Source: Eledone cirrhosa
Taxonomy: Eukaryota
Direction of reading: 5' to 3'
NCBI GenBank assembly: GCA_964016885.1
Contig: OZ024742.1
Coordinates: 36,456,001 to 36,520,000, forward strand
DNA length: 64,000 nt
Below, piece after piece: positions 9,084-42,609 of the stretch. The notes under the pieces were generated by a model, which worked only from the letters and a program-made list of their open reading frames with translations, was not told the origin of the DNA and ran no database searches. Numbering within the stretch: the first letter of the stretch is position 1; each line of letters opens with the position of its first letter. Made by a program: the position numbers and the translations under genes.

Positions 9084-9277
9084 TAACGAAGGAAATGTGG
9101 TAAGGAACCAGGTGGACCATAACGCACCAAAGTACTCAATACTTAGGGTAGTAGAGTGGGTAATAGGAACGAGTAGGTCCCCGACGGCTGAGCTCAAGCC
9201 GTTTCGACGGCTAATTCTGGTCCAGAATTAGCCGTCGAAACGGCTTGAGCTCAGCCGTCGGGGTCCTACTCGTTCCT
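9084..9277. mobile_element. Naiad-like Penelope pLTR fold-back insertion in (TA)n. Other copies: 12580-12692, 13318-13491, 17823-17992, 20248-20430, 21420-21611, 24347-24864, 24908-25065, 30902-31095, 32020-32180, 40999-41191, 42420-42578
   Basis: Repeated ~135-bp unit ending ..ccacatttccttcgtta|(TA)n, palindromic around tctgg-t-ccaga. Contains hammerhead 3' half GAAAC-GGCT-tgagctc-AGCC-GTC. The copy at 24400-24733 runs into a Naiad-type ORF start. Confidence 0.8.
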
Positions 9278-9289
9278 ATATATATACAT

Positions 9290-12200
9290 CTACCCTCTCA
9301 ATTAATCTACTCTCTGTAATCGACATTACAAGCAAACCACCAACCAACGATGCAGCATAACATACATCAGCATCAAAAGGGTTTATTGAGAAATTGTAAA
9401 CAACAACAAAAATAACCTTCATTTAATGAGATTAGAAGAAAACGAGGACAAAACACAACCAAAACACCACTAACTCTCTTTCTCTTTATCTCTCCTTCTC
9501 TCTCTCTCTCTCTCTCTCTCTCTCTCTCTCTCTCTCTCTCTCTCTCTCTCTCTCTCTCTCTCTCTGTCTCCTTCTCACTAATGACCCAATTCTGTTGGTC
9601 TATTGTAACAACGTTGAATTCCCAATATATATATATATATATATATATATATATATACATACACACAGACAGACAGAGAATGTTGTGTGTGTGTGTACAT
9701 GGGTGTGTGAGCGTTTATATGTGTAAATACGAATAATCTATAGGCACGCATATGTAAAAATCTTTATATGTATGCATATGTGTAAATGTGTAATCTATAT
9801 ATGTAAATATATATATATGTGTGTGTGTGTGTGTGTGTGTGTGTGTGTGTATAATAAATATTTTAACGGTATATGTGCGCATATGTGTATATATGTAAAT
9901 TATCTACATATACGTGCATATGCGTATATATATATATATATATATATGTATATACTGTATATATATATATATGTATATATATGTATATATATATATATAT
10001 ATATATATATATATATATACTGTATATATATACTGTATATATATATATATATATATATATATATATATATATATATATATATATATATATATATATATAT
10101 ATATATATATATATATATATATATATCGGTGGATGGAACGGGCTGGATAGTTAAGATGGTTAAGATATTTGATTCACAAATTGGAAGTCTCATGTTCGAC
10201 TCCACCGAGTGGTATCTTGGCCAAGTGTCATTTACAATAGCCTCGGGTTGACCCAACACTTCTGAGTGAAATTGGAAGCTGTTGGATTAACTGCACATGT
10301 AATTCAAAGGACTAGTCCTATCACACACTATGTCACGGTGATCCTCTCTGAGAATTAAATTAGGGTAAGTATATGTGTCAGTGAGAAGCTTAGTCACTTG
10401 TATGTTGATTTCATAAGCAGGCTGCTCCCCTTTTCTAATAACTGAAATACTCATCGTCGAAGCCGACGGAGGTCCATAGCGCTACATGTCTCAGTGTTAT
10501 CTGTGTAGAGTCAGAAGAAGCATTAAAATGGAACTTCGAAATGGCTGTTACATTTCTTCGAAAAATTCTTTGGCTCTCTTTTTATCAAATTGATATGTGT
10601 GTGTGTGTGTGTGTGTGTGTGTGTGTGTGTGTGTGTGTGTGTGTGTGTGTGTGTGTGTGTGTGTGTGTGTGTGAGAGTGTGTGTCTTTGTGTGTGTGTAG
10701 TGTGTGTCTTTGTGTGTGTGTAGTGTGTGTGTGAGTGACTGTCTGTGTGTGTGTGAGTGTGCCTGTGTGTGTGTGTGTGTGTGTGTGTGTGTGTGTGTGT
10801 GTGTGTGTGTGTGTGTGTGCGTGTGTGTGTGTGTGTGTGTGTGTGTGTGTGTGTGTGTGTGTGTGTGTGTGTGTGTGTGTGTGTGTGTGTTTGTGTGTGT
10901 GTGTACGACAATTGACTTGACTACATCAGATACAAAGCTAAAGTCATTGAAACAAACATTCAGGACCACTACAAGTAAAGGACCCAGGGCGGTCACCCTC
11001 TGACACCCTCCCAAATGCCATATCAGCGGTCACTGCTGATACCCAAAATGTCAGAAGCATGAGTACAATCCACCGCCTGAGAGACCTAACACTTGGATAT
11101 AATTTGATAAAAAGAGAGCCAAAGTATTTTTCGAAGAAATGTAACAGCCATTTCGAAGTTCCATTTTAATGCTTCTTCTGACTCTACACAGATAACACTG
11201 AGACATGTAGCGCTATGGACCTCCGTCGGCTTCGACGATGAGTATTTCAGTTATTAGAAAAGGGGAGCAGCCTGCTTATGAAATCAACATACAAGTGACT
11301 AAGCTTCTCACTGACACATATACTTACCCTAATTTAATTCTCAGAGAGGATCACCGTGACATAGTGTGTGATAGGACTAGTCCTTTGAATTACATGTGCA
11401 GTTAATCCAACAGCTTCCAATTTCACTCAGAAGTGTTGGGTCAACCCGAGGCTATTGTAAATGACACTTGGCCAAGATACCACTCGGTGGAGTCGAACAT
11501 GAGACTTCCAATTTGTGAATCAAATATCTTAACCATCTTAACTATCCAGCCCAGCCTGTTCCATCCACCGATATATATATATATATATATATATATATAT
11601 ATATATATATATATATATATATATATATATATATATATATATATATATATATATATATATATATATATATATATATATATATACGCATATATATATACGC
11701 ATATGCACGTATATGTATATAATTTACATATATACACATATGCGCACATATACCGTTAAAATATTACATATATATATATATATATATATATATATATATA
11801 TATATATATATATAGAGAGAGAGAGAGAGAGAGAGAGAGAGAGAGAGAGAGAGAGAGATTACACATTTACACATATGCATATATATATATACAGATTTTT
11901 ACATATACGCATATGCGTACCTATAGATTATTCGTATTTACACATATATACGCTCACACACCCATGTACACACATACAACATTCTCTGTCTGTCTGTGTG
12001 TATGTATATATATATATATATATGTATATATATATGTATATATATATATATTAGGAATTCAACGTTGTTACAATAGACCAACAGAATTGGGTCATTAGTG
12101 AGAAGGAGAGACACAGAGAGAGAGAGAGAGAGAGAGAGAGAGAGAGAGAGAGAGAGAAGGAGAGATAAAGAGAAAGAGAGTTAGTGGTGTTTTGGTTGTG

Positions 12201-12472
12201 TTTTGTCCTCGTTTTCTTCTAATCTCATTAAATGAAGGTTATTTTTGTTGTTGTTTACAATTTCTCAATAAACCCTTTTGATGGTGATGTATGTTAAACT
12301 GTTTCAGTAATGAATGGTAGATATCTGTGCAGAAGGGTGGAGGATTAAATATTGTGTGGGGATGGCAGTGTCTTCGCGCGCGCATGTGTGTGTGTGTCTG
12401 TGTGTGATACTGTATCGTTGGTTGGTGGTTTGGTTGTATTATCGATTACAGTGAGTATAGATTAAATGAGAG
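9290..12472. repeat. Large inverted duplication (~1.3-kb arms, ~510-bp spacer)
   Basis: 9290-10592 is the reverse complement of 11101-12472. Inner ~470 bp is nearly identical; outer ends and microsatellite lengths differ. Confidence 0.9.
10126..10478 (+). mobile_element. Diverged tRNA-derived SINE (inverted copy at 11215-11571)
   Basis: B-box atgttcgactcc, central domain cttggccaagtgtc..tagcctcgggttgaccca, tail ..tcgtcgaagccgacggag, resembling an abundant octopus SINE. Confidence 0.65.
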
Positions 12473-12773
12473 GATGATGGATATGTGTGTGTGAGTGTGC
12501 ATATATATATATATATATATATATATATATATATATATATATATATATACATATATATACATATATATACATATATATATAACGAAGGAAGTGTGGTAAG
12601 GAACCAGGTGGACCATAACGCACTAGAGTACTCAACAGGAATAGCCGTCGAAACGGATTGAGCTCTGCCGCCGGGGTCTTGAACATTTTCCTATATATAT
12701 ATATATCTCTTCAGTGAACTTATAACATGAAGTTCACATAAAAATATGTCACTATCTTTACACCAATTATTAT

Positions 12774-40752: not shown

Positions 40753-41221
40753 TATATATATATATATATATATATATATATATATATAATTTGTATTTGG
40801 TTAAACTTAATCACTTTTTATAATTCCCGATGATATGCGGATGTTATATGTATTATCTTGTGTGTAAATAATTTCTAATTGACTGTGAGAAACGTATGTA
40901 GATATTAAACAATAGATTTAAGTTTTTAACCTTGGTTTACCTTCATTCTAAATATATATGCAGTGTACCCCCGACATTATATATATATATATATATATAG
41001 GAACAAGTAAGACCCCGACGGCTGAGCTCAAGCCGTTTCGACGGCTAATTCAGTCCATAATTAGCCGTCGAAACGGCTTGAGCTCAGCCGTCGGGGTCTT
41101 ACTTGTTCCTATTACCCATTCTACTACCCTAAGTATTGAGTACTTTGGTGCGTTATGGTCCGCCTGGTTCCTTACCACATTTCCTTCGTTATATATATAT
41201 ATATATATATATATATATATA

Positions 41222-41805
41222 TGGAATGATCTGCTAGCCTTCTAGCCGGTATTCCCAGTATGTAACTATAGGAAAGGAATCTAATTGTTTCTACTATTCG
41301 TACAAGGCCAGCAATTATCCAGTACATTACTGGTACTTTATTTTATCGACCCCGTAAGGATGAAAGGAAAAGTTAACCTCGGCGGGATTTGAACTCAGAA
41401 TGGCAAGGACCGTAACTCTATGCGTCAAAGCATGGTGTCCGACCCTCTACCGATACTGCCAATTCACCATATAAAAAAGGAATATAATACAACAGATGAC
41501 ATTTATAGTGGTGCATGTGAAGTAGTTAGTGATATATATATATATATATATCACTAACTACTTCACATAGCAGTATCGGTAGAGGGTCGGACACCATGCT
41601 TTGACGCATAGAGTTACGGTCCTTGCCATTCTGAGTTCAAATCCCGCCGAGGTTAACTTTTCCTTTCATCCTTACGGGGTCGATAAAATAAAGTACCAGT
41701 AATGTACTGGGTAATTGCTGGCCTTGTACCAATAGTAGAAACAATTAGATTCCTTTCCTATAGTTACATACTGGGAATACCGGTTAGAAGGCTAGCAGAT
41801 CATTC
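41222..41805. repeat. Inverted duplication of SINE plus flank around a (TA)n-centred palindrome
   Basis: 41222-41460 mirrors 41570-41805; 41515-41568 is a perfect palindrome around (TA)n. Confidence 0.85.
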
Positions 41806-41990
41806 CACCGAACATCTTCGAGACATCCCCTTAAATAACACCACATCATCTTCTGTTCCACACCTCAACTCTCAATATGCGTTGTCCTTTCACACCTCGG
41901 CTCCCTTGCTTCTCGTTATCACAAACAATAATGTCTTATTTTCCGCTTTGTTTGCTCTGTTCCCTTTCATTCGAAGAGTGTACTGACATT
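41762..41990 (+). pseudogene. Decayed GIY-YIG C-terminal half (Penelope-like)
   Basis: YILGIPVRRLADHSTEHLRDI..VPHLNS resembles YIGET.R.L..R..EH...VA.HFN. Confidence 0.45.
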
Positions 41991-42609
41991 AACCTAACTG
42001 TACCTTAACTAACTCCCTTTCATTTCTCAAACATCACACATGCTTTCATTTCGTATCCTACCACAACACATCATACACGCACCATTATTTAAATATACGC
42101 CTCACAGACTACAAACACCAATCTTTCACACCCACACATCCACATAGGCTGCATATATCACTCGCACGCATACATCAGTACACAAACATACGTATTAATA
42201 CTACACGTACTCATAACTTTAAATACATACATTTCTACACACAGACCCCCAACTATCAATTGTATGAATCTCCATGTACATCTCTACACATACAGATCAC
42301 TTACTCTCTTTCCCTCTCTGTATATGTGCGTTTTGTGGGGGGGGGGGGGAACTGCAACCAACACATGATGCTTGAGATCGTAATACGGAGATACGTCAAA
42401 CTTTATAGATAGATAGATATGAAAAGATTCAGGACCCCGACGGCTGAGCTCCCGCCGTTTCGACAGCTAGATCAGATCTAGCTGCCGGGGTCCTGAATCT
42501 TTTTATATTACCTACTCTACTACCCCAAGTATCGAGTACACTGGTGGGTTATGGTCCACCTGTTTTTTTACCACATCCTATGTGATATATAGATAGATAG
42601 ATAGATATA

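Follow-up and report, generated by a model that had tools for sequence, protein, structure and literature searches.

Head-to-head stubs of a Penelope-like element in Eledone cirrhosa as probable products of dual target priming

The 64,000-nucleotide stretch analyzed here (Eledone cirrhosa, contig OZ024742.1, positions 36,456,001 to 36,520,000; hereafter the window) contains a set of short insertions derived from a hammerhead-bearing Penelope-like element (PLE), and it raises the question of why so many copies should turn back on themselves in the same small region. A previous examination of the letters only (the sequence-only reading) had counted about 12 pseudo-long-terminal-repeat (pLTR) insertions of this kind; we found 12, between 9086 and 42576, nearly all of them placed within (TA)n tracts, between TA runs, and most were head-to-head palindromes, as had been described.

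Quite probably, these stubs arose from a cut (TA)n target whose two ends both primed reverse transcription on one RNA of a Hydra-clade PLE, the resulting complementary DNAs (cDNAs) running off the likely capped 5′ end of that RNA and then being joined. The breakpoint clustering flagged by the sequence-only reading would then be the trace of a testable replication step.

The insertions and their parent element

Throughout, positions within the element are counted from the G of GAAAC as 0, which puts the predicted hammerhead cut site (C17) at +22. Two arm ends recur, one at about +40 (site 1, the end of the tail-less arm) and one at about +119 (site 2, the end of the tailed arm). In these terms, the insertions of the window are as follows.

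9086..9279, mini-insertion: tailed site-2 arm on the minus strand (9086-9220, -15 to +119), head-to-head with a site-1 arm on the plus strand (9220-9279, -17 to +40)
12582..12691, non-overlapping twin-primed insertion: site-2 arm +66 to +119 (stops within the tail), site-1 arm about -12 to +40; +41 to +65 absent
13320..13490, palindromic insertion of an older subfamily: tailed arm on the minus strand
17824..17991, mini-insertion: tailed arm without stem III (skip between two AGCCGTC repeats); site-1 arm -17 to +40
20250..20440, minus strand, insertion with a site-2 arm (-19 to +119): complex hairpin junction, without a site-1 end
21422..21611, mini-insertion: site-2 arm to -17, site-1 arm to -15
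24349..24863, young composite insertion, candidate template-jump product: 99-100% identity to an intact array unit
24349-24399, minus strand, part 1 of the composite: site-1 arm -12 to +38, joined directly to open reading frame (ORF) position +348
24400-24731, part 2 of the composite: from +348 through the ORF start and the leader to +17
24732-24863, plus strand, part 3 of the composite: site-2 arm -12 to +119
24910..25065, mini-insertion: tail-to-tail with the 24349..24863 insertion across a TA tract; site-2 arm to -7, site-1 arm shortened
30903..31093, mini-insertion: site-1 arm to -18, preceded by a G that is common to the partner's end; site-2 arm to -14
32032..32180, old diverged palindromic copy: about 71% identity to the copy at 9084
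41000..41189, mini-insertion: site-1 arm to -12 (minus strand), site-2 arm to -18 (plus strand)
42421..42576, palindromic insertion of an older subfamily: one arm with an internal deletion

The family is abundant in the 3.0-Gb host genome. A 29-nucleotide (nt) probe for the hammerhead 3′ half gave 36,161 exact matches, as opposed to 5,620 with the 5′ core, and its reversed control gave none. In a fixed-position sample of eighty 10-kb stretches, there were 34 insertion clusters, which extrapolates to roughly 10^5 insertions per genome; the density in the window is about 4 times that of this sample. Contigs from two sequencing runs also had these TA-flanked ends, with depth forming a plateau across the leader, but the runs may come from the same sample and we do not treat them as independent.

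Through long copies we could reach a parent unit of 3.5 kb, with intact 717-residue ORFs lying within tandem arrays. The protein carries YRDD and VIY..YIG motifs, the endonuclease (EN) being C-terminal. Its structure model (predicted local distance difference test score, 91.9) had the telomerase reverse transcriptase (RT) structure TERT 3du5 as the top Foldseek match (E 5.5e-9). Sequence searches of Pfam and PDB with the ORF gave no match, and a single PDB profile match (E 0.029) was judged spurious; GIY-YIG is supported by the motif and by a weak alignment to one Pfam-positive PLE. The query contains RWR, DKT, CxCx5C, CxxC and CxH, and CCHH is absent. Among 80 aligned proteins, RW[KR] is found in 73, DKT in 76, CxCx5C in 77, and both CxxC..E and CxH in all 80; the inner CxxC occurs in none, and CCHH is missing from most or all of them.

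The copies also show traits of EN+ PLEs: tandem or partially tandem units forming pLTRs, an inverted 5′ copy and a tail on one side. According to the accessible part of Craig et al. 2021 (PMC8557442; this and the other papers cited by identifier were available to us in part), the Hydra clade is characterized by a C-terminal GIY-YIG without CCHH, a CxCx5C linker, CxxC plus CxH, RWK and DKT motifs, insertion into (TA)n and a canonical hammerhead in the pLTR, whereas Naiads have an N-terminal endonuclease, a DKA motif and no canonical hammerhead. The (TA)n target was seen both in the window and in the genome samples. By these motifs, the parent is assigned to the Hydra clade as a C-terminal EN+ PLE. 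The sequence-only reading was thus right in seeing Penelope-like pLTR fragments with a type I hammerhead and mistaken in calling them Naiad-like, a clade ruled out by the C-terminal endonuclease, by DKT in place of DKA and by the full type I hammerhead fold. Neptune was discarded as well, neither the CX2-5CxxC linker nor the EN CCHH motif being present in the query.

The parent hammerhead runs ACCCC, core, 56-nt stem-loop II, GAAAC, stem III, GTC and GGGGT. Parental copies read ..ACCCC-TTGAGAA-GATCGGCTATTT..ATTTAGTCCAGAATTAGCCGTC-GAAAC, and the minimum-energy fold of an intact unit has type I topology. Cores are of the U3-A8 or C3.A8 type, with a long stem II: the first 100 of the 5,620 core matches comprised 76 TTGANAA, 24 CTGANAA and not one CTGANGA, the form that had been predicted upstream of stem II. 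U3-A8 is described as a known PLE hammerhead variant in the part of PMC4209133 that we had. Separate searches for CTGANGA (28 and 63 matches) returned mostly chance occurrences in junctions or flanks, with about 9 true C3-G8 copies. In Rfam, no hammerhead was placed on this family among the matches listed (150 of 211).

In the window, the 3′ half (GAAAC, stem III, GTC, GGGGTC) is carried by the copies as the sequence-only reading stated, although it is partly deleted or decayed in some, and no copy there has the 5′ core half. The hairpin gacggctaattctgg-t-ccagaattagccgtc had been taken for stem II; since parents carry a different, 56-nt stem-loop II after the core, this hairpin is instead the place where an antisense and a sense arm meet. 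The AGCCGTC repeat said to be shared by stems II and III is real, and it accounts for a 23-nt skip of stem III found in 3 arms by a strict pattern search.

Arm ends and template jumps

As had been claimed, the long arm ends in ..TTCCTTCGT directly before TA. The short arm was thought to be variable; its outer end proved to be fixed too, stopping at ..TTCC before TA. In the parent, TAT comes next after either site, and the sequence beyond site 2 leads into the ORF start at +213.

Of 57 short head-to-head pairs, drawn from sets gathered without regard to the junction, 54 combined one site-1 arm with one site-2 arm, and neither site 1 with site 1 nor site 2 with site 2 occurred; in the other 3, the second arm ended near site 1 without a TA run. 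The same one-of-each rule held in 14 of 15 long pairs and in the two multi-unit arrays that could be seen at both ends. That the arms of a pair stop at different fixed sites is likely due to priming of reverse transcription on the same RNA by both ends of the target DNA. Of 45 typed pairs (12 were untyped), 43 also had matching subfamily tags on their two arms, against 21% expected from pooled frequencies, and therefore one RNA was likely copied twice. The pattern matches the in vitro behavior of the PLE protein PAc, for which the accessible part of PMC11167929 reports cutting and extension of both strands, a predicted dimer, and two internal start sites bounding the tail.

A short palindromic insertion elsewhere (L288) has arms with different subfamily tags at +31 to +36, reflecting two RNAs or later conversion.

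The inner ends were examined on 170 unselected arms, by an extension method that overstates some ends at -19 to -24. They were clearly non-random: 127 lay at -11 to -24, with an abrupt edge at the mode of -18 (23 arms), while 24 were shorter, 5 reached -26 to -56 and 14 ran on. The clustering inside the stem II domain noted in the window is thus found genome-wide. Position -18 is the A of an initiator-like TTAGTC, 29 nt after the TATA-like TATTTAAA in young arrays. TATA and initiator motifs have been noted in rotifer pLTRs (PMC3846280, in part).

At -19, immediately outside this A, genome-wide counts gave 5,439 G and 893 A beside 16,356 copies with the parental T (C was not counted). One base further out, at -20, the ratio of G to A was 23:77 in a by-eye count of the first 100 of 1,716 matches. 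When 20 G copies were followed in list order, manual reading of the rows showed that in 11 the G did not come from the partner arm; a script tallied the same copies as 8 not from the partner, 8 possibly from the partner and 4 cases of microhomology. In L1 insertions, an untemplated 5′ G is an accepted mark of a copied cap (PMC9341517, in part). Judging from the copies, -18 is likely a capped transcription start within hammerhead stem-loop II, in which case the messenger RNA leader has only the 3′ half of the ribozyme. Among 283 site-2 arms, no clear peak of 5′ ends was found at the hammerhead cut (+23).

The same start region was also found joined to other positions of the RNA. The leader-ORF junction has 316 exact matches genome-wide, and the first 30 loci included 7 insertions (8 loci) whose ORF, broken at +213 to +941, was joined directly to -17 to -22, together with one insertion joined to +23, which is the predicted cut-site product. 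With a further start-to-ORF join, bearing a G, in the fixed-position sample (L227) and the composite at 24349-24863 of the window, nine insertions in all have an arm end at -12 to -22 joined directly to ORF positions +213 to +941. Random deletions are an unlikely source, as they would not all fall at one spot. In one locus (L330), a start-to-ORF join is repeated twice, giving a 257-bp tandem (-21 to +235).

Start-region direct duplications gave 45 matches, which were reduced to 23 independent events by dropping 12 (antisense-type or non-start joins) and collapsing 10 as tandem repeats. The commonest acceptor among them was +22, with 4 clear events and 1 ambiguous one (P ~0.007 for 4). A long copy, L360, contains a complete U3-A8 hammerhead ending exactly at C17 and joined via TAAG to -18; one other +22 join has an oligo-A before the G.

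Further arrangements around these ends were recorded. Tandem units beginning at the inferred RNA start measure 54 bp (-18 to +35, at least 9 matches) in L370/L371 (G000:C1632) and 47 bp (-18 to +28) in L364/L365. At the inversion junction of a multi-unit insertion (L373:5173-8693, in the G000:C1 array), a 55-bp ORF piece is present in about 63 head-to-tail copies, an array that looks like reiterative short-template copying by a telomerase-related RT. In L042, L031, L036 and L040, foreign sequence lies at or upstream of arm 5′ ends, several times the CTGANGA-bearing segment of another repeat; it may reflect jumps to other RNAs.

Proposed mechanism and alternatives

On this basis we propose that cutting of a (TA)n target leaves two DNA ends, each of which would prime reverse transcription on the same element RNA, at +40 and +119, and that both cDNAs would run off the likely capped RNA 5′ end inside stem-loop II. 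Their 3′ ends, trimmed by a few bases, would then be joined head to head by microhomology or short inserts. In a productive copy, and here we are less sure, the run-off cDNA would jump to the RNA 3′ end. The 40 nt between the start (-18) and the hammerhead cut (+22) would be repeated there, like the R region of long-terminal-repeat (LTR) elements, and a homologous jump within this repeat would be seamless, yielding long copies, pLTRs and arrays, with the stubs as failed jumps.

Whether the whole cycle is an LTR-like strand transfer primed by target DNA (two fixed starts in the leader, run-off at the cap, a jump through the 40-nt R repeat to a hammerhead-set 3′ end, successive rounds building pLTRs and arrays, and stubs as strong-stop products) we regard as evenly balanced. 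Read-through RNA from arrays could yield the same long copies without a jump, which puts the role of the jump in normal replication at about even odds. In the part of PMC2377424 available, no obvious mechanism regenerating pLTRs is recognized, and PMC4209133, again in part, proposes circular templates for tandems.

Several observations weigh against the proposal. Only 23 of the 170 arms end exactly at -18 and many end at -11 to -17, which makes trimming an extra assumption, while some arms extend to -21 or -22, a possible second start. The start itself is read from genomic copies. TA flanks raise the A count of the -20 control, and in 7 of the 20 G copies read manually the G possibly came from the partner's end, with microhomology in 2; the extra G could be a non-templated addition at an uncapped end. 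One long pair (L156) joins site 2 to site 2, subfamily tags are mixed in 2 short pairs, and tag concordance could partly stem from subfamilies having been active at different times. As for the jump, the +22 excess is based on 4-5 events, and seamless jumps are indistinguishable from copies of read-through RNA, which existing tandem arrays are able to supply. The ribozyme shows a C3.A8 mismatch in 24 of 100 cores, and its helices showed no covariation in a pattern-selected sequence set whose pairs are near invariant.

Among the other explanations, the one that survives best, though still improbable, keeps the two primers and has the RT stall on a longer RNA, blocked by the folded stem-loop II or by a protein bound to it. 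The stop zone does overlap the inner hairpin of the predicted stem-loop II, and ends are spread from -11 to -24. However, the mode at -18 lies inside the helix rather than at a helix base (-1 or -14), a stall leaves the G at one position unexplained, and the joins to unrelated ORF positions look like end-to-end jumps.

Slightly less plausible still is an RNA end produced at -18 by nuclease processing of read-through or hammerhead-cut RNA, with a non-templated G and with long copies made without a jump from tandem read-through or circular RNA. Non-templated addition at template ends is known for the R2 RT (PMC8857657, in part), tandem arrays exist, circular templates have been proposed, and the short tandem repeats in L330, L364 and L370 fit circles as well as jumps. 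Against it stand the TATA-like box and initiator-like motif at textbook spacing, as well as the fact that transcription of Drosophila virilis Penelope begins inside the pLTR (PMC2377424, in part); moreover, a circle closed at the hammerhead site would give no stop at -18.

In the model of the sequence-only reading, a single cDNA would fold back on stem II and prime its own second strand, an account that we now think very unlikely. It would explain palindromic junctions and arms of nearly always one subfamily, short templated hairpin inserts do occur at a few junctions (L034, L043, L210 and 20250 of the window), and self-priming has been proposed for PLE inverted repeats (PMC3846280, in part). 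Yet nothing would make a copied-back strand halt at site 1, where long and multi-unit arms end as well, and the two arms of 54 in 57 pairs end at different fixed sites. The tail-less arm extends 5′ of its partner by at least 3 nt in 12 of these 54 pairs (the tailed arm in 18, with 24 within 2 nt) and is the longer one in kb-scale pairs too. In six insertions, including the one at 12582 of the window, the arms do not overlap at all: the tailed arm stops inside the tail and the other reaches -14 to -19, so that neither can be a copy of the other, and snap-back is largely refuted thereby. The stem II 5′ strand is, in addition, absent from short copies, and the stop lies inside the helix, at the initiator-like A with an extra G at one position, not at the helix base.

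Perfect palindromes are unstable and the variation is mostly at the centre, as expected if a palindromic master element were amplified as a unit and later lost parts of its hairpin tip, but this is hardly credible, given that the site-1/site-2 rule holds for arms from 60 nt to >14 kb with unrelated centres, that several subfamilies share the layout, and that the centres carry a non-parental G and inserts.

The preferred reading, dual priming with run-off at the RNA start, has the further merit that this family offers base-level genomic readouts of priming sites, RNA start and jump acceptors, plus intact young ORFs, which makes it directly testable. If true, it would connect PLEs, as the telomerase sister group, with the way in which LTR elements transfer strands, and the ribozyme would have a defined job.

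Other repeats of the window and known systems

The window holds several elements besides the studied family. A fragment of another PLE endonuclease, with the inner CxxC, lies at 40051-40509 on the minus strand (Pfam GIY-YIG, E 0.009). At 13847-13918, also on the minus strand, there is a different type I hammerhead with a canonical CTGATGA core and a minimal stem III, unrelated in sequence to the studied family (Rfam HH9, E 3.1e-6, under the gathering score), and a 29-bp tandem array rich in CTGANGA occupies 63117-63586. A long interspersed nuclear element (LINE) that has endonuclease and RT-like ORFs is present in several copies, 76-97% alike and lying in either orientation, at 32802-34322 and 42611-55819, while a 715-bp direct repeat (99%) at 1-715 and 17025-17739 contains the end of another LINE-like ORF. 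A second dispersed repeat of about 180 bp is found beside TA tracts at 14644-14824, 25697-25881, 32372-32553, 38271-38460, 41282-41747, 59846-59999 and 62714-63068, twice as inverted pairs, and possibly represents stubs of another element. Finally, 9353-12301 is a nested long inverted duplication (arms 9353-9924/11698-12301 and 10127-10591/11101-11570).

The parent shares with the Hydra clade, including Hydra-1_Obim (PMC8557442, in part), RW[KR], DKT, CxCx5C, CxxC plus CxH around conserved E and N, a C-terminal GIY-YIG without CCHH, the (TA)n target and the pLTR hammerhead. It differs in the size of its unit (about 3.5 kb, versus <3 kb for most Hydra elements), in a tail of about 80 nt rather than 30-40 nt, and in a hammerhead whose stem-loop II measures 56 nt and whose cores are mostly U3-A8 or C3.A8. 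Hydra-1_Obim, with whose description rather than sequence the parent was compared, is listed as 2,507 bp without a pLTR. With Naiads, as described in the accessible part of the same paper, the common points are the (TA)n target, inverted 5′ copies and very high copy number; the N-terminal endonuclease and the DKA motif are not features of the parent, and Naiads lack a canonical hammerhead, whereas the parent unit folds as a type I hammerhead, mostly with U3-A8 or C3.A8 cores. Non-LTR retrozymes are tandem non-coding units, each with a complete hammerhead; the copies in the window are dispersed, inverted and without the 5′ core half, and hence do not belong there.

L1 twin priming (Ostertag and Kazazian 2001) reportedly involves priming by both target ends on one RNA, giving a head-to-head inversion. 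The proposed process has these features in common with it, and six copies have non-overlapping arms. Unlike in L1, the priming sites are fixed and near the RNA 5′ end, and the arms usually overlap, the same stretch having been copied twice.

If the jump holds, the process would resemble minus-strand strong-stop transfer of LTR elements, as far as our partial sources describe it, in being primed close to the 5′ end, running off at the cap and moving on to a repeated R at the 3′ end. The parent is nevertheless not an LTR element: its primer would be target DNA, not transfer RNA, the hammerhead would define where R ends on its 3′ side, each of the two strands would be primed as a first strand, and no integrase or RNase H domain was found.

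The inverted-plus-tail layout, pLTR hammerheads, two RT start sites and the Hydra clade are already published. In the literature searched, most subscription papers lying outside it and others being available in part, we found no PLE model combining dual priming, cap run-off and a jump. The inverted-pLTR-plus-tail insertions of PMC3846280 and PMC8557442, in the parts at hand, share with ours a head-to-head inverted 5′-truncated copy, a one-sided tail and an AT-rich target, and PAc (PMC11167929) shares the two start sites bounding the tail. Where the accessible parts of these three papers account for the inversion, they invoke self-priming or unvalidated steps; here, by contrast, genomic copies were used to count the pairing of one arm per site, the stops at the inferred RNA start and the candidate jumps.

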